Assembly: GCA_963731265.1 (NCBI GenBank) | Contig: CAVSUE010000001.1 | Coordinates: 864,997-928,996, forward strand | Direction: 5' to 3' | Length of the DNA: 64,000 bases | Source: an uncultured Verrucomicrobiae bacterium | GTDB lineage: Bacteria; Chlamydiota; Chlamydiia; Chlamydiales; Rhabdochlamydiaceae | In this document: in pieces, positions 4,079 to 51,261 of the stretch | Position numbering within the stretch: the first letter of the stretch is position 1 | How the letters are laid out: each line of letters starts with the position of its first letter | Notes under the pieces: model-generated | Databases searched by the model: none | What the model was told of the DNA's origin: nothing | What the model saw: only the letters and a program-made list of their open reading frames with translations | Position numbers and translations under genes: made by a program

Positions 4079-4214
4079 TTAAATGGCCCGCTTTTGAATC
4101 ACGATGTGTATAATCAATAGAACAGAAATATCTACAAAAAGCAAATTGTTCTGACGAAAAAAAACAAATGGGTTAAGTTGTGGAACAATGGGTCGAATTT
4201 CAGAGGAGCGGGAT

Positions 4215-4730: not shown

Positions 4731-4919
4731 TCAAGGCCGATAAGACCGCGCGATGACCCAAATTGCCGCGATCCCGAAAGCAGTGTAGAAGATATGTTGA
4801 ACCATGTGCATGGTGATAAAAACCCACATAACCATATTAAAATCAGCAACCCCTACAGTTCCCCAGTTTAGGCCGCCGATCACTAATAAAATGATTGCAA
4901 TTTTGTCTAAAATTTTCAT
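4731..4919 (-). CDS. DUF378 family small membrane protein
   Basis: MKILDKIAIILLVIGGLNWG signature. Confidence 0.88.
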   Translation of the reverse strand: MKILDKIAIILLVIGGLNWGTVGVADFNMVMWVFITMHMVQHIFYTAFGIAAIWVIARSYRP

Positions 4920-5032
4920 CCGTCCTCCGGCGGAAACCCGGCCCTTAAAGGGCCGGGTATTTTCAAAAACAATGTTGGGCCGAGGTCGAAGCTGGGGCCC
5001 AACTTAATCCCAGGCCTTCAGGCCTGGGTTCA
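4920..5032 (+). mobile_element. IS605-derived non-autonomous mini-element, copy 1 (113 bp, three hairpins)
   Basis: Preceded by TTCAT (4915-4919). Hairpins ACCCGGCCC-TTAAA-GGGCCGGGT, GTTGGGCC..GGCCCAAC and CCCAGGCC-TTCA-GGCCTGGG; ends GGGTTCA. Near-identical to the reverse complement of 62790-62901. Confidence 0.8.
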
Positions 5033-5325
5033 CGATTTTCCCAAAAACTCTATCTAAACCTATTTAGCAAGAAGTATAGGATTCATCAATTATGAGTCTA
5101 GGGCAAGCCGCGTTTTTTTGGGAAAAAAGATTTTTTAGTTTTTCTTCAAAAACCGTACATCTGCTATAAGTTAGTTATGTTGAAGCATATTGGCATTTCC
5201 AGCTCTATTTCCCTTCTTCTCCTTAGCTTTCAAGGCTAAAACATTGACATTTCCATAAATTCTTTTTTTTACAGAACGCAAGCCAAGAACCTTGGCTATT
5301 TATAACTTTTTAAGAGGATAAGAAA

Positions 5326-20361: not shown

Positions 20362-20448
20362 ATGGGAAAAAAACGGGATTAAATAAGCATGCCTTATTTT
20401 TTCCTAACCTGAACTTAACAAAGCTGTGCTCATGAATCATATGACCTC
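20362..20448. repeat. ~85-bp direct repeat, copy 1 (possible IS-end remnant)
   Basis: CTTATTTTTTCCTAACCTGAACTTAACAAAG(C/G)TGTGCTCATGAATCATA(T/C)GACCTC recurs at 21492-21578. Confidence 0.75.
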
Positions 20449-21491: not shown

Positions 21492-21578
21492 TGGGAAAAA
21501 AAATCGGATTAAATTAGGATCACTTATTTTTTCCTAACCTGAACTTAACAAAGGTGTGCTCATGAATCATACGACCTC
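21492..21578. repeat. ~85-bp direct repeat, copy 2
   Basis: See copy 1; ends 4 nt before the likely speE ATG. Confidence 0.75.
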
Positions 21579-23728: not shown

Positions 23729-24637
23729 ATGGGTTTTACCATGTTTTATTTTGAAATAAACCGTTGGTTCCGGGCCCTTGCCCGCTTTTGCGATTATTGC
23801 CTTTTTTTTCTAGCGCTTGGAGCTGTTACTCTTTTTCTTCCGTTCTTTTACGGCCCTCTATTTTATTATTTGCTCGCATTGGCTACCCCATTCTTGTGGG
23901 TCCCCGTAGAAGCCTGGTTGATTAGCAAGTGGGCAACAACTCCCGGAAAAGCCCTATTAGGTTTATCGGTCCGCGACCCTCTTGGCTTTAAACTTCCCTT
24001 TTACGCTTCTTTGCGCAGGGCATTTTTTCTACCTGGCCGGCCGGGGACAGTCCTTCAAAAAAAGATCTCGTGGATAAGAAAGTTATGCGCCATTGCAGCG
24101 AGTACGGTATTTGTCATGACAGCAGTCTATGGTAATTATTTGACGTTGTGGAGCGTGGGCTTAAACAAGGGAATCTCTCCGCAAGAATGGGTCCAATATT
24201 CTCCCAATGATGGCGGTTTTAAAATTTCTTTTCCGACGCCCCCGGAAGAAAATGTCAAAGAACTCGTGATCCCCGACAGCGGAAAAGTTCTTCCCTACGA
24301 AGAACTCACCAGCACTGAAAATGAAAAAATCCGCTATTCTGTGAGCCACATGGAACTTCCCCGACGATGGAGAATCGCGGGCAATACCACTCTTCTCAAG
24401 GGAGTGCTCGAACTCGTAGTGAAACATACGGAAGGGGGAGAGCTCATCGAAAAAGAATTGAAAATAATCTCGGGGCATCGCGTCCTAGACTATCGCATGA
24501 AACAAGGTGACGAGGAAGTCAAAGGGCGCTTGATTATCGTCGGGCCCATTTTGTACAAACTCTCCATCACCTATCCCCCTTCCCATGCTGACAAACTGGA
24601 GCAGAATCCCTTCTTAGATTCCTTTGAAACGTCTTAG
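23729..24637 (+). CDS. RDD family membrane protein with C-terminal soluble domain
   Basis: RALARFCDY..TPGKALLGLSV. Confidence 0.8.
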   Translation: MGFTMFYFEINRWFRALARFCDYCLFFLALGAVTLFLPFFYGPLFYYLLALATPFLWVPVEAWLISKWATTPGKALLGLSVRDPLGFKLPFYASLRRAFFLPGRPGTVLQKKISWIRKLCAIAASTVFVMTAVYGNYLTLWSVGLNKGISPQEWVQYSPNDGGFKISFPTPPEENVKELVIPDSGKVLPYEELTSTENEKIRYSVSHMELPRRWRIAGNTTLLKGVLELVVKHTEGGELIEKELKIISGHRVLDYRMKQGDEEVKGRLIIVGPILYKLSITYPPSHADKLEQNPFLDSFETS

Positions 24638-24799
24638 AAGCTGTCCTAAAACCGCAATTTCGAATCTTCGGCGCTTTCGCGATCTTTTTTGCCGCCTCGC
24701 TCAGCCATATCACCGTCCCGATATTGTCTTCGCTCGGCGTCAAAAAATCTCATCGAAAGCTCCTCCGAATCTCCGGGATTGTGGTTTTAGGACAGCTTC
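24637..24799. mobile_element. MITE-like element (163 bp) with TIRs, flanked by TTA
   Basis: GAAGCTGTCCTAAAACCGCAAT ... ATTGTGGTTTTAGGACAGCTTC; TTA at 24634 and 24800. Confidence 0.75.
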
Positions 24800-24802
24800 T
24801 TA

Positions 24803-24973
24803 GAGACTGACCACAAACTCAGCTTCTGTCGATTTTCGGGTTCTTTGGAGCCAATTTTCGAATTCTTTTTGCGGGGGTAGTATCAACTTGCGTATACCAC
24901 CCCCGCAAAAAAAATCAAAAAGCGGCCAAAATAATCCCGAAAAGCGACGAAGCCTGGGTTTGTGGTCAGTCTC
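24803..24973. mobile_element. MITE-like element (171 bp) with TIRs, flanked by TTA
   Basis: GAGACTGACCACAAAC ... GTTTGTGGTCAGTCTC; TTA at 24800 and 24974. Confidence 0.75.
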
Positions 24974-25591
24974 TTAGTGCAACGCTTTGATCCAGTAGAT
25001 CATCGGCTTTTCTGTGGCATGATCTTTCCCAGCTGTTTTCCATGCAAGGGTGCATTTCATTTCGGGATGCACAATATATCCTCTTTTCCGCCAAAAATCA
25101 GATAAAGGGATGAAATCTTTCGGGGCCCGTGTATCTGTTTCGGAATGTTCGGGGAAGCAAAAGCAGATGTGTTTGTATTTTTTGTGGTGGGCGACATGCG
25201 CTTCGCGCGCATCGAAAAAATGATGGCCGATCCCTCGGCCCCGGTAGGCCTTGAGGAGGACAGAGTCTCCAAATGAGTAATAGGAATCGATATCCAGGCG
25301 TCTTTCTTTAAAAGGTTTCAAGAGAGGTTGTTCCTCAATGGCGAGAGGATAGCCAACGGAAGCGCCGACAATGGTCGTGTTATCGAAAATCAAAACTCCA
25401 ATCGACTCTCTGTGGGATAATACTTTTCTTAAAGTTTGCGTTTCCCTATCAAGGTCCGGCTCTTCAAAATAGGGGTACTCCCTAAAGACATCCATGCGTA
25501 ATTTGGCCACCGAATGCAGATACGACTTTAGGCCCGCCCCGGTGAAAGAGCGGACGTGGATATCTGTCAGAAGCATCATGTTTTCCCCCAA
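24974..25591 (-). CDS. GNAT family N-acetyltransferase
   Basis: LRMDVFREYPY; DSVLLKAYRGRGIGHHFF; FWRKRGY. Confidence 0.88.
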   Translation of the reverse strand: MGENMMLLTDIHVRSFTGAGLKSYLHSVAKLRMDVFREYPYFEEPDLDRETQTLRKVLSHRESIGVLIFDNTTIVGASVGYPLAIEEQPLLKPFKERRLDIDSYYSFGDSVLLKAYRGRGIGHHFFDAREAHVAHHKKYKHICFCFPEHSETDTRAPKDFIPLSDFWRKRGYIVHPEMKCTLAWKTAGKDHATEKPMIYWIKALH

Positions 25592-27189: not shown

Positions 27190-28326
27190 TTAAATCTCAT
27201 CTCTTAAGATTTTTTGACGGTACCGCCGCATCAAATCTATCATGAAATGCAGGTTATGGATCGTGGCGAGCGTCATGCATGTCATCTCGCGGGCTTTGAA
27301 TAAATGATGGAGATAGGCCAAAGAAAACTGGCTGCATGTTGAACAAGGACAACCTTCTTCAGGCGGAACAAAAGCCCTGGCATGGCTGCTCTGTGTGATT
27401 TTCAGGGGACCTTTGTTAGTCAACAAGATCCCATGACGTGCTGCGCGTGTGGGATAAGAAGAATCAAAAGTATCTATCCCCAAAGGAATGCATTGATCGA
27501 TCGATTCCAGATCGCCGATCCCAAGTAGATGATTGGGCTTTTCTAGCGGAAGCATCGGCATTGTCGTTGAGAGCATCCCGATCATTTCGGGCTTGGTTTT
27601 TCCCATGCTTCCTCCAATTGCAAATCCATCGAAAGCAAGGCCGGTTAAGAAATCGCAACTCGCTTTGCGCAGTTCATGATGAACCCCGCCATGAATAACT
27701 GCGTACATCGCTTGTCGTTGAGGGTTTGCCAGGTGAGCGTTGAGCGAACGCTCCTCCCATCGATGCGTGCGGTCCAACGATTTTTTTAAATCGATATCGG
27801 CAATATGATAGGGGGGCAACTCGTCGAAAGGGATGATGATATCGGCGCCAAGGTCTTTTTGCGCAGCTATCGAAGTTTCCGGGGTCAGAAGGATCTTCGC
27901 GCCATCTCGATAGGAGCGGAACAGGACTCCTTCCTCGGTGATTTTCAACACGTGGCCGTCTTGTTTTTTTGTGCCTTTGCTCTTTAATTCATCGGCGACG
28001 GAACCATAAGCTAAGCTAAAGACTTGAAAGCCCCCTGAGTCAGTGATGATGGGCAATGAGCGGTTGATATAAGAGTGCAGACCGCCTGCCTGGCGCACAA
28101 TTTCCGTACCCGGCTGAAGCATGAGGTGATACGTATTGCAGAACATCAGCTGCAATCCCATTTGTTCAACGGATGCGTTATCTAAAGCTTTGAGGGTCCC
28201 GTTGGTCCCGACCCCGACAAAATTCGGCGTGTCGATGACTCCATGAGGGGTTGTGATCCTGCCGACGCGCGCGCGCGATTTTGAAGAGCTATGGATAAGC
28301 TCGAATTGAAAATACGGTTGAGTCAT
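27190..28326 (-). CDS. tgt: tRNA-guanine transglycosylase
   Basis: RARVGRITTPHG, CNTYHL, TDSGGFQVFSL, GIDTFDSSYPTR, Zn site CPCSTC..H. Confidence 0.96.
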   Translation of the reverse strand: MTQPYFQFELIHSSSKSRARVGRITTPHGVIDTPNFVGVGTNGTLKALDNASVEQMGLQLMFCNTYHLMLQPGTEIVRQAGGLHSYINRSLPIITDSGGFQVFSLAYGSVADELKSKGTKKQDGHVLKITEEGVLFRSYRDGAKILLTPETSIAAQKDLGADIIIPFDELPPYHIADIDLKKSLDRTHRWEERSLNAHLANPQRQAMYAVIHGGVHHELRKASCDFLTGLAFDGFAIGGSMGKTKPEMIGMLSTTMPMLPLEKPNHLLGIGDLESIDQCIPLGIDTFDSSYPTRAARHGILLTNKGPLKITQSSHARAFVPPEEGCPCSTCSQFSLAYLHHLFKAREMTCMTLATIHNLHFMIDLMRRYRQKILRDEI

Positions 28327-28982
28327 TCTGTTACCGTTCTTTTGGAGAAGTGGACCAGCGGCGTCATGAGCATGATGACCAGGAGTTTAATTAAAAAGCT
28401 GACGAGGATGACATCCGAAAGATGTTCCACGATTCCCCAGAGGCCTAAAATCGAAAAGAGAAGTGTATCGAGAAATTGCGTGAAACCGACTGAGAGGGCG
28501 TTCCTGCATCCTAGAGGGATCATTTGAAATTTGTCTTTAAGCAGGCCAAACAGACGCAATTCCATCTGCTGGACAAAAATAAAGACGGCAAACGAAGCGA
28601 CGAGGAGGCGAGGGGAGGAAGATAAAACCGCTTTAAAAGAGGCATGAGAGGTATCGAAAGGGCTTGGGGCATAGAAGAGATGGATCTGCGCCATGGCCGC
28701 AAAAAAGGCCATCGCGAAGAAACATGTCCGCAGCGCTTTTTTCGCTTCCTCCTGCCCATGATATTCCCGCAATAAATTCAGGCCGAAGATGTTGCCGACG
28801 GCGAAAACATCGCTGCAAGTGATATGGAACCCAAAAAAGAGGATTTGTTTGATGACAAACAGGTTTGCCAGCACCGCTTGAAGCGCAATCCAGGACGTAA
28901 GGGTGGCCTTCCCCATTTTAAAGGCGGCAAACCCAAAACCTATAACGATAAAAATGTGGGCTAGGAAGAGCAATTCATTCAT
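28323..28982 (-). CDS. yhhQ: Queuosine precursor transporter (YhhQ/Vut_1 family)
   Basis: LANLFVIKQ, DVFAVG..LNLLRE.HG, SPRLLVAS, RNALSVGFTQFLDT. Coupled to tgt; the ORF-track extension comes from the mini-element. Confidence 0.88.
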   Translation of the reverse strand: MNELLFLAHIFIVIGFGFAAFKMGKATLTSWIALQAVLANLFVIKQILFFGFHITCSDVFAVGNIFGLNLLREYHGQEEAKKALRTCFFAMAFFAAMAQIHLFYAPSPFDTSHASFKAVLSSSPRLLVASFAVFIFVQQMELRLFGLLKDKFQMIPLGCRNALSVGFTQFLDTLLFSILGLWGIVEHLSDVILVSFLIKLLVIMLMTPLVHFSKRTVTE

Positions 28983-29054
28983 TTTCAAAAACCATGTTGG
29001 GCCGAGTTCGAAGCTCGGCCCCAACTTAATCCCAGGCCTTAAGGCCTGGGTTCA
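28983..29054 (+). mobile_element. IS605-derived mini-element, copy 2 (left-end hairpin missing)
   Basis: Follows TTCAT (28978-28982); retains the central and right hairpins and the GGGTTCA end. Confidence 0.78.
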
Positions 29055-29150
29055 CATAAAAAATTTCTTTGTGGAGGGTACAAGAATAGCACGGCGGAGT
29101 TTAATTCGGAAGAGTTTGCATTTTTTTTTCTAAACACATAAACTAATTAT

Positions 29151-34617: not shown

Positions 34618-34851
34618 ATGTTAACTTGGGCCGTCATATTTTTGATTATTGCAATTGTTGCAGCATTATTTGGTTTTGCAGGTATAGCCAATGTGTCTAC
34701 ACAGATTGCAAAAGTTCTGTTTTTTATTTTCTTGATCCTTTTTATCGTTTCTTTGATTTATCATTTTTCCAATAGGGAACCTGTTCCAGTGACTACCACA
34801 ACACTAAATTTCCATGCCAACGCCATTGTAGAAATGATATACACATCGTGA
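34618..34851 (+). CDS. DUF1328 (UPF0391) family small membrane protein
   Basis: [43 protein letters not shown]. Confidence 0.88.
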
Positions 34852-35011
34852 CTCAAAAGCGGGCCATTGGCTTCGTCGGCATCCTCATCTTTGCAGTTGG
34901 CTGCATCGAGGATGTTCTTGCACATCCCCTGCTTCCCCAACGGCTCCGCCTGCTGCAAATCTGAAGCCCCGCCATAGCCACTAACCAACTTTTGAAACCC
35001 TCTGCGTATAG

Positions 35012-50334: not shown

Positions 50335-50595
50335 ATTTCTCCTTAAGTGGTTTTTTTTTGGGATTGAGCATAGCAAAGAATCTTCATTAAAGCAATCTTA
50401 ACAAAACTCAATTTTTTGAGGTTTTGACAAATAAAAGGATTAATTAACTGGTTCGTGTAGAGAGTGATCGAAGATTTTAATGCTCGTTTGAAGACTCGTG
50501 CGTCGTTCCTCAGCGTAATTTTACTCATTTACACATTATAAATAAATACGAGCACTTATTTTAAAAGGGAATGACCAGGAAAGGTTGACCCCCTA

Positions 50596-51208
50596 GAGGT
50601 TGCATAGGCTTTTATTCAACGCAGAGGCGCTAAGACGCAAAGGTAAATTCCGAGGCATACAATGTCTCAGAATTTACTTTCATTTTTTGGCGAAAATCAA
50701 GAGTTATAAACCATTTACTACTCGACAAACGCCATCCTTGAGCTGTTTTTTGCCAAAGTTGAGAAGAAGACCTAATTTCATGCCACTGAGGCGCAGATAG
50801 GTTAATAATTGGGATTGATATACGGAATGATCAAGTTCAGTTGCTTTGACCTCAATGATTATTTTGTTTTCGACCAGAATATCTAAAAAGAGAAGATCCC
50901 TAATGGTTTTGTATTTCACCGGAATAGCCAATTGCCTCTGGCAACGCAATTCTAACAAAGACAATTCATAGACCCGGCCCCCTAAGGCACGGTGAACCTC
51001 AATGGCTGCTCCAATGATTTTTCGCGTAAGCTCAGCTTCCATGGTCCTAAAACTATACAGAAAAAATATTTTTGCAAAATGACATTTGGTGCTCTCTTTT
51101 CTTCCTTCCAAGTGAAGGTAAATTCCGCGGCATTCTAATGCCTCGGAATTTACCTTTGCGGCTCGGCGGCTTTGCGCCTCTGCGTTGCATAAAACCCTAT
51201 GCAACCTC
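50596..51208 (-). mobile_element. Inverted-repeat-bounded GxxExxY cassette
   Basis: Arms of ~62-70 bp, GAGGTTGCATAGG..CAACGCAGAGGCGC..GCAAAGGTAAATTCCGAGGCAT and their complement at 51138-51208. Confidence 0.75.
50704..51042 (-). pseudogene. Degenerate GxxExxY (PD-(D/E)XK-like) protein
   Basis: LTRKIIGAAIEVHRALG; DILVENKIIIEVKA; QLLTYLRLSGMKLGLLLNF. The GxxExxY motif itself is disrupted by short in-frame deletions. Confidence 0.75.
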
Positions 51209-51261
51209 AAGGTGGTAATGGGATGTGTAAACTTGCCACGAGCCCGTGCCCGGCTTCTTTA

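Follow-up and report, generated by a model that had tools for sequence, protein, structure and literature searches.

A hairpin-rich IS200/IS605-family mini-element of Verrucomicrobia and Chlamydiae that is enriched at translation starts

Background

Palindrome-associated transposable elements (PATEs) were described in Haloquadratum walsbyi as non-autonomous derivatives of the IS200/IS605 family (PMC3119063), and both PATEs and the targets TTCAT and TTTAT have been documented in Geobacillus stearothermophilus (Meers et al. 2023 preprint 10.1101/2023.03.14.532601). Dispersed repeats of ~120-150 bp that reside just upstream of open reading frames (ORFs) and contain stem-loops and a ribosome-binding site are known from Neisseria (REP2) and Borrelia (IR); REP2 was described with a promoter and an ATG of its own and with no assigned transposition mechanism (PMC3184786). 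Here we describe a mini-element that is present in three copies in a stretch of 64,000 nucleotides (the window) from an uncultured Verrucomicrobiae bacterium that GTDB places in the Rhabdochlamydiaceae (assembly GCA_963731265.1, contig CAVSUE010000001.1, positions 864,997 to 928,996 of the forward strand). The repeat is a non-autonomous IS200/IS605-family element, i.e. a PATE, and its left end very often abuts the start codon of a gene.

Bacterial transposons are thought to persist by gene avoidance or by rare benefit, and Y1 transposases insert 3' of a fixed target of 4-5 nt without target-site duplication. With the present element, it appears to be the ends that prevent harm from insertion at the most sensitive position in a gene. 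We consider it likely that it is a PATE of gene junctions, which is tolerated since both of its ends suit the neighbouring genes and which is, incidentally, a portable Shine-Dalgarno (SD) sequence with a structured leader.

Results

Three copies in the window and their empty sites

Repeat detection and pattern matching revealed the copies c1, c2 and c3 (Table 1); a 27-nt right-end pattern matched three times in the window versus zero times expected from shuffled sequence. An earlier note on this DNA had recorded the same three copies, each preceded by a TTCAT that is the complement of the ATGAA start of the DUF378, yhhQ and tnpA genes, and both statements agree with the sequence and the Pfam assignments. 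The ends that it gave were, however, one base off: c1 ends at 5033, c2 at 29055, and c3 occupies 62789-62901. With colons marking the insertion boundaries, the active strand of the element reads TTCAT:CCGTCCTCCGGCGG AAA CCCGGCCC-TTAA(A)-GGGCCGGG TATTTTCAAAAACAATG TTGGGCCGAG-(T/G)NCGAA(G/A)-CTCGGCCCCAA CTTAAT CCCAGGCC-TT(A/C)A-GGCCTGGG TTCAC:flank. Copy c2, which lies 3' of the TTCAT at 28978-28982, is without the first ~40 nt and therefore has no terminal mini-hairpin (HP0), no left-end hairpin (HP1) and no SD-like motif. Copy c3 is placed exactly 5' of the ATG of tnpA in the resident IS605-type element, ISx.

Local homology of the window to Rhabdochlamydiaceae-like loci, at ~69% identity, points to an environmental chlamydia-like host. 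The window was compared with contigs of related organisms (~90-95% identical) from the metagenome runs X1, X2, X3 and X7; such relatives occur in moss and plant metagenomes. A 7.2-kb contig of X1 contains the DUF378 gene up to 4919, followed directly by the homologue of 5034 onward (TTCAT:GATTTT), so that c1 must span 4920-5033 and end in TTCAC. The c2 site is empty in X1, X2 and X7, where 28982 is joined to ~29056 (TTCAT:ATAAAA); X7 reads TTCAT:ATAAAATTTATTTATGGAGGG at this locus. Copy c3 is absent from the ISx copies in X2, X3 and X7, which read AGCCT:ATGAAAAAGTCAATGGATTTG (empty site TTCAT:AGGCT), and also from the intact ISx copies L066 and L067, which were reached via TnpA homologues. None of the three empty sites shows a target duplication. 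Moreover, the host ATG is retained in them, and the ATG is thus host sequence and not part of the element. The insertion 3' of TTCAT without target duplication that the earlier note had proposed, together with the empty sites that it expected in relatives, was in this way found for all three copies.

As to the neighbouring genes, an exact-protein look-up of the DUF378 product gave no identical protein on record. The mechanical ORF of the YhhQ-like gene (28323-29024, 233 aa) begins at a TTG inside c2, which is a mis-annotation of the start.

Structure and spread of the family

The family was collected in two flank-blind scans: the right-end hairpin pattern gave 38 loci in 185,579 species genomes, and a left-end 25-mer gave 27 loci in the metagenomes of the Joint Genome Institute (JGI). 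One near-complete Verrucomicrobiae metagenome-assembled genome (MAG), CAVOSF01, holds at least 19 copies in the right-end scan, and further right-end matches were found in MAGs of Verrucomicrobia, Rhabdochlamydiaceae and Chlamydiae. The elements are 112-123 nt long, consist mostly of hairpins and have no protein-coding capacity. Most of the 42 extracted copies carry the end motif TTCAC, about eight carry TTCAT, and TTCAA or TTCTC occurs in single copies.

In an alignment of 20 sequences the three helices were 96% paired, versus 56-60% with the partners slid by one column. Compensatory changes were found in HP1 and in the right-end hairpin HP3 (96-99% paired), and of the seven pairs with compensatory double changes, four belong to the middle hairpin HP2. 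The stem of HP2 is replaced wholesale between subfamilies, and its 7-nt loop keeps (T/C)NCGAAG at all loci. The three hairpins that had been noticed before thus covary, and they are joined by the small terminal HP0. This hairpin comprises the first 11-15 nt, has 4-5 bp and covaries as well (CCGTC..GGCGG, CCTTC..GAAGG, CTTCC..GGAAG, CCCG..CGGG); it is missing from the autonomous ISx and from a tnpB element in L055. The single-strand DNA fold of the element reaches -36.6 kcal/mol (z = -6.4) and the RNA fold z = -3.5, and the wobble types in the helices, six G·T versus nine A·C, give no indication of the functional strand. Rfam returned no match at gathering score in the whole window. In E-value mode, only sub-threshold matches were obtained for c1 (STnc490 with 24 bits at a gathering score of 56, sot0042 with 18.5 bits at 88) and for the right end of ISx, and no ribozyme was found by Rfam in the window or in c1. 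Local GC skew, positive in 25 of 47 cases, gave no signal of a replication-strand bias.

Within one genome, 0-4 nt separate the copies of the largest (MFD) subfamily and 0-8 nt those of the second, which points to recent spread. Copies at start codons are older than the others in one subfamily, equal in another and younger in a third. A 'deletion shelter', in which old copies would survive only at starts, is not supported: the copies are young and those at start codons are not consistently older. Both points disfavour a slow differential decay and stay compatible with the immediate purging of harmful insertions.

The target and end rules, the subterminal hairpins, the lack of coding capacity and the empty sites all agree with the non-autonomous IS605 derivative that had been suggested. 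A classical miniature inverted-repeat transposable element was rejected, considering the hairpin ends, the asymmetry of the element and the three empty sites without target duplication. L032 and L010 were discarded as right ends of full-length elements, being solo right-end hairpins. The matches in Bacteroidota, L017, L020 (Parafilimonas MAG) and L008, share only the CCCAGGCCTGNAGGCCTGGG palindrome, which in L017 and L020 ends a different multi-hairpin repeat of ~135 nt that is ~90% identical between the two. In L055 (976-1000 region) a 43-nt micro-element has the left arm of HP1 fused to the right arm of HP3.

Association with start codons

After removal of duplicates, the census comprised 54 independent sites with a left end, flanked by TTCAT (31 sites), another NNCAT (9), TTGAT (5), TTTAT (5), TTAAT (3) or GTGAT (1). 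Target positions 4 and 5 are A and T in all 54; TTCAT is preferred and NT[C/G/T/A]AT is tolerated. For a site to count as a start codon, its CAT had to be the ATG of an ORF that points away from the element and either has a minimum of 60 aa or leaves the contig. This holds exactly for 29 sites; together with two at frameshifted genes (tnpA in the window and a SpeH-like gene in L053), 31 of the 54 sites (57%) lie directly at the ATG of a real gene reading away from the left end, which amounts to 78% of the NNCAT-flanked sites. Gene starts next to the 14 non-ATG flanks were not found, and a further three copies precede a gene of matching orientation at a distance of 19-46 nt. Among the TTCAT-flanked sites, 23-25 of 31 (74-81%) are at gene starts.

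Pfam domains, MshEN among them, begin within the first residues (1-8) of the proteins read from the junctions, which argues that the junction ATGs are native N-termini. The genes include those for RmlA, HPr, KdsA, ornithine cyclodeaminase (OCD), 5-formyltetrahydrofolate (5-FTHF) cyclo-ligase, RecN, ZnuA, phosphatidylserine decarboxylase, endonuclease IV, Tmk, MurG and a type II secretion system ATPase.

A crude background was taken from 344 kb of the same genomes, with 1178 ATGAA sites of which 126 are intergenic and 36-64 lie at candidate gene starts. The share expected at starts is 3-5% for a uniform use of TTCAT and 22-34% when only non-disruptive sites are used. The observed excess has P <= 5e-6 for either null, and P = 0.005 even at p = 0.5, with starts making up half of the tolerated sites. 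In the single case of c3, the start of tnpA was taken among eight TTCAT sites in ISx (P = 0.125). The genome-wide tally that the earlier note had called for thus gave non-random flanks, none of the outcomes that the note had named as refuting was observed, and of its claim that the element targets start codons the enrichment stands. Targeting in a mechanistic sense does not follow, since TTCAT is an ordinary motif of the family and selection may suffice.

Homologous genes of the metallo-beta-lactamase fold from two MAGs carry different subfamilies at their start codon (L062, ~7149, and the minus-strand copy in L012), which represents either independent hits on one gene family or coincidence.

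Ends that would suit the neighbouring genes

Every full copy of the main lineage has GGAGG at 4 nt from the ATG. More specifically, the gene-strand left-end junctions are GGAGGACGG:ATG in c1, where HP0 reads CCGCCGGAGGACGG on the minus strand directly before the ATG, and AGAGGACGG:ATG in c3. Both full copies thus end in an SD-like sequence and ATG, in line with the earlier observation; the wider idea that the element supplies an SD applies to the full main-lineage copies but not to c2. Other left-end variants read GGAGAAGG, GGGAGAAGG and GGGGAAGG on the gene strand. Purine-rich GGAG motifs are present in four of six left-end variants of the mini-elements, and the SD-like motif is missing from two left-end variants, the autonomous ISx and the L055 tnpB element. 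The native leaders that were displaced are mostly A/T-rich, and only nine of 21 contain an SD by a lax rule. In addition, decayed copies at gene starts in L055 (976-1000), L061 and L065 keep only the SD-bearing left end. Judged from the sequence, GGAGG would act as a functional SD for the downstream gene.

No promoter was called inside the element, and no terminator-like hairpin with T-run was called on either of its strands. Transcription from a native promoter can therefore be expected to read through on the gene-sense strand; for c1 the candidate for such a promoter is a sigma-70-like consensus match (Table 1). For the window and for L030 no RNA run was found. A soil metatranscriptome yielded one contig of 151 nt, 100% identical over its 84 nt of tmk, with the ATG, and its 67 nt of the element, which is compatible with co-transcription of the element and tmk.

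Two further arrangements were observed. In a 121-nt subfamily (L005, L007, L030 and others; MAG CAVOSF01) the gene strand contains an additional ATG, 90 nt before the host ATG and in its frame, and the stretch from one to the other is free of stop codons; this could provide a 30-aa N-terminal extension or mislead gene callers. In L026, the copy (minus strand, index ~6223) precedes a gene for a class-V aminotransferase by 26 nt; the element SD and the flanking ATGAAA form an upstream ORF of nine codons (MKIIFGCG*), the TGA of which runs into the true ATG (TGATG).

On the gene strand the right end begins with GTGAA. At six sites (L011, L015, L021, L035, L048 and L062) an upstream ORF of 141-600 aa stops at the TGA in this GTGA, from which it follows that the arrangement before insertion must have been a 4-nt ATGA overlap. 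The last codon of the upstream gene changes from NNA to NNG, which is synonymous in all six. At five further sites the stop of the upstream gene and the insertion point are 1-8 nt apart; the native SD must there reside within that gene, and it is now at a distance of more than 112 nt. At least 11 of the 29 start-codon sites are thus operon junctions with essentially no spacer, where the 5' edge of the ATG is consequently the sole entry point that does not break an ORF. After insertion, the only SD-like sequence near the downstream start is that of the element. The stop-codon role of GTGA is a feature beyond the observations of the earlier note.

The resident ISx and relatives of its transposase

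ISx contains divergent tnpA and tnpB genes. Its left end reads TTTAT:CCACTAGACGCGAGAAAACTCGGTCCCTTTAGGGCCGAG and its right end AATCCCTCGCTTTAGGCGAGGGAGGTTCAA, and the empty site of the whole element is found in X1, X2 and X3, where a skip of 1828 nt less 11 bridging letters gives 1817 nt. Intact relatives of tnpA read ATGAAAAAGTCAATGGATTTG, with the native start ATGAAAAAG (MKKSMDLRHGR), which shows ATGAA to be the native start of tnpA. The window copy of ISx is probably defunct, its tnpA being frameshifted. The layout of ISx, CC..GAAAAC-hairpin on the left and AATCCC-hairpin-..TTCAA on the right, resembles that of the mini-element. The mirrored IS605 ends reported before were thus quoted correctly and are alike in architecture, whereas the stem sequences, the target motif (TAM) and the end motif (TEM) differ.

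A tblastn search with TnpA and TnpB of the window against the 65 scanned loci yielded only an unrelated IS1341-like tnpB in L055. The TnpA homologues led to the ISx copies L066 and L067, which are intact but have TTTAT/TTCAA ends, unlike the mini-element. The tnpB-only element in L055 (4935-6047) is 38% identical to the TnpB of the window and has the left end TTTAT:CCTAACAGCGCCGAAAACC and a different right end; it belongs to the same broad group. In one TnpA homologue (P0002, 229 aa) the N-terminal ~90 residues are duplicated in tandem.

Table 1. Coordinates of the mini-element copies, their parts and the adjoining features (window positions unless another locus is named)
Feature	Position	Strand	Remarks
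c1	4920-5033	+	full-length, 114 nt, ends TTCAC; X1 empty site, repeat detection
Target motif (TAM) of c1, TTCAT	4915-4919	+	reverse complement of ATGAA, first five bases of DUF378 gene
HP0, terminal mini-hairpin of c1 (CCGTCCTCCGGCGG)	4920-4933	+	
SD-like GGAGG of c1 (in HP0)	4924-4928	- (gene strand)	4 nt from ATG at 4919-4917
HP1, left-end hairpin of c1 (CCCGGCCC-TTAAA-GGGCCGGG)	4937-4957	+	presumed TnpA-binding subterminal palindrome
HP2, middle hairpin of c1	4975-5002	+	stem covaries between subfamilies, loop conserved
HP3, right-end hairpin of c1 (CCCAGGCC-TTCA-GGCCTGGG)	5009-5028	+	
End motif (TEM) of c1, TTCAC	5029-5033	+	GTGAA on gene strand, provides TGA
DUF378 gene	4731-4919	-	Pfam; ATG abuts left end of c1
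Sigma-70-like promoter match	5073-5100	-	upstream of c1 on gene strand; consensus match only
c2	28983-29055	+	73 nt, 5'-truncated: HP2, HP3 and TEM only
Vut_1/YhhQ-family transporter gene	28323-28982	-	Pfam; start ATGAATGAA abuts c2
c3	62789-62901	-	full-length, 113 nt, TEM TTCAT; between tnpB and tnpA of ISx
ISx, IS605-type, divergent tnpA and tnpB	61567-63383	-	1817 nt including c3; TEM TTCAA
TAM of ISx, TTTAT	63384-63388		ATAAA on plus strand
tnpA (Y1 transposase, IS200-type)	62902-63314	+	frameshifted, one G lost after 62915; in-frame ORF from TTG 62919
tnpB (OrfB_IS605 / Cas12f-like TNB)	61615-62766	-	383 aa; Pfam
GTGA-supplied stop in L015	6456-6459		aminotransferase/OCD gene pair; read by eye

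Other repeats in the window

Several repeats lie elsewhere in the window. A near-perfect palindrome of 100 nt (18908-19007; two 50-nt arms, 98% complementary, no spacer) is located between two minus-strand ORFs, and a nest of inverted repeats occupies 24632-24977. Long inverted repeats at 50588-50658 and 51138-51216 (arms of 51 and 39 nt, 87-88% complementary) flank ~0.5 kb, possibly a further small mobile element or what is left of one. An 85-nt direct repeat (20364-20448 versus 21494-21578) is 89% identical at a distance of 1.1 kb, and a 31-nt inverted repeat (4082-4112 versus 34838-34868; 97%) is found 30 kb apart, beside gene ends.

Discussion

The findings suggest the following course of events. 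A Y1 TnpA acting in trans would move the element by single-strand 'peel and paste', by analogy with IS608 and ISDra2. ATGAA is, by our reading, the commonest gene start in these genomes and TTCAT its complement, so that a sizeable share of the sites that do not break an ORF would be start codons. The survivors at starts would persist through the compatibility of both element ends with their neighbours. The left end would set GGAGG 4 nt upstream of the untouched ATG, and so substitute for the displaced native leader, and the right end, GTGAA, would rebuild an in-frame TGA for an upstream gene that once overlapped as ATGA. The outcome would be a seamless insertion at gene junctions. The pattern may stem from insertion preference or from prompt selection.

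A number of points weigh against this reading. GGAGG is also part of the covarying HP0 and could serve transposition instead. Copy c2 sits at a start codon without an SD, and the native leader there had none either. In fact, these phyla often initiate translation without an SD, which may thus be dispensable. The 151-nt RNA contig, unstranded and with a depth of 2.8, may stem from carried-over DNA. The excess over the non-disruptive null rests on crude gene calls, this null treats all intergenic TTCAT sites as neutral, and at p = 0.5 the excess is only moderate. Finally, a TnpA with the ends of the mini-element, for which the earlier note had proposed to search, was found neither in the 185,579 species genomes nor in the JGI metagenomes nor at the 65 loci, and ISx differs from the mini-element in its TTTAT/TTCAA motifs and hairpin sequences.

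Part of these points would be accommodated by the view that the repeat is an ordinary PATE whose distribution is a by-product of TTCAT specificity and of the purging of disruptive insertions, with GGAGG having a purely structural role in HP0. Indeed, HP0 pairs and covaries, the native leaders are poor in SD sequences, c2 is tolerated without one, and selection alone predicts 22-50% of the copies at starts. The observed 74-81%, however, is above those nulls, and the autonomous relatives have neither HP0 nor the purine motif; remnants at gene starts retain the SD end. Moreover, at the 11 operon junctions with spacers of 0-8 nt, re-initiation beyond a structured insert exceeding 112 nt requires some signal. 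We therefore regard this explanation as rather unlikely.

An active targeting, in which the machinery would prefer start regions beyond the pentanucleotide (T-rich context, exposed single strands) and the pattern would be set at insertion, we consider improbable. It would fit the very young copies, of which 45-80% are already at starts, the start-codon copies that are not older, the T-rich left flanks (TTTTCAT, TTTCAT) and the sole insertion into ISx, which chose the tnpA start among eight TTCAT sites (P = 0.125). Nevertheless, no mechanism of IS200/IS605 elements is known to read more than the 4-5-nt target, 14 of the 54 sites have non-ATG targets in non-genic DNA, and the local GC skew (25/47) shows no strand bias. 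Besides, lethal insertions are purged at once, and the youth of the copies is thus compatible with selection.

The element could also be a carrier of guide RNA, with a top-strand, omega-RNA-like transcript that TnpB would use in trans for homing or retention, the gene starts being incidental. Omega-RNA genes are frequent in PATEs (Meers et al. 2023 preprint 10.1101/2023.03.14.532601), HP2 keeps a loop for which no TnpA role is known, tnpB is present in ISx, and the TEM TTCAC differs from the TAM TTCAT, as protection from self-cleavage would need. The 114 nt are, however, below the length of known TnpB scaffolds, Rfam gave no match at gathering score but sub-threshold ones only, and at start sites the top strand runs antisense to its neighbouring gene, with no promoter called, which makes this possibility very doubtful. 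That the repeat would be no mobile DNA but a host regulatory leader, i.e. a conserved 5'-untranslated motif resembling an attenuator or thermometer, is hardly conceivable in spite of its 5'-leader location, its stable conserved hairpins (RNA fold z = -3.5) and the SD beside a small hairpin, because orthologous loci in relatives lack it precisely, as the empty sites testify, because its copies precede genes of unrelated function or lie in non-genic DNA or within an IS, and because its end and target rules are those of IS200/IS605.

The PATE of gene junctions with two compatible ends remains the likely interpretation. A stronger formulation, which we find plausible but would stop short of calling probable, is that an IS200/IS605 mini-element lineage evolved into a seamless parasite of gene junctions, with a target that is the complement of ATGAA, a portable SD and a portable stop. 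It could thus enter exactly between neighbouring or overlapping genes with harm to neither, and it would thereby uncouple translation and provide dozens of housekeeping genes with a structured leader that may be regulatory. If the ends indeed render insertion harmless, the element would represent a natural portable module of SD and structured leader, it would account for mis-annotated starts where gene callers extend ORFs into the element, and it would offer a clean system in which selection and the choice of target in single-strand transposition can be told apart. A warning is contained here as well: the target motif of TnpB or TnpA alone can bias elements toward translation starts.

Comparison with known systems

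The kind of element (PATE), the class of mechanism and the TTCAT target are already known. For a start-codon niche, or for ends that supply an SD or a stop, in IS200/IS605 derivatives no description was found in the literature searched, which was incomplete. The novelty that the earlier note had held possible therefore shrinks to the start-codon niche and the two neighbour-preserving ends, which seem undescribed. With PATEs the element shares the lack of coding capacity, subterminal hairpins without terminal inverted repeats, insertion 3' of a target of 4-5 nt without duplication, and a presumed mobilisation by TnpA in trans. It differs from them in that most copies are at start codons, in the outward GGAGG at the left end, in the right end that regenerates a TGA, and in a third covarying hairpin with a conserved loop.

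The logic of target and end motifs, the hairpins at the left and right end and the strand-specific single-strand mechanism are those of IS605, IS608 and ISDra2. The resident ISx has the gene layout of IS605 and follows the same rule (TTTAT:...TTCAA), as seen from its empty site; unlike these elements, the mini-element is gene-less, and its hairpin sequences and TAM/TEM differ from those of ISx, which in turn has no terminal hairpin and no SD motif. From REP2, compared by description only, it is distinguished by an ATG that is host-derived, by the lack of a detected promoter and by an insertion mechanism that is readable from the empty sites.

As with the repetitive extragenic palindromes (REPs) and bacterial interspersed mosaic elements (BIMEs) of the RAYT system, we are dealing with a short, abundant, hairpin-forming sequence related to Y1 transposases, and as with Correia elements, with a repeat that may alter the expression of its neighbours. 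REPs, however, are mostly located downstream of genes and tied to a single-copy RAYT, and Correia elements combine terminal inverted repeats with a duplicated TA, none of which applies to the mini-element. Finally, IStrons and group I and II introns likewise are mobile elements that neutralise the damage of landing in or at genes. In the present case the silencing would come from ends that act at the DNA level, by mimicry of an SD and a stop, rather than from RNA splicing. If true, the mini-element would be a DNA-level counterpart of the self-splicing introns and IStrons, by which mobile DNA is hidden in coding-dense genomes.

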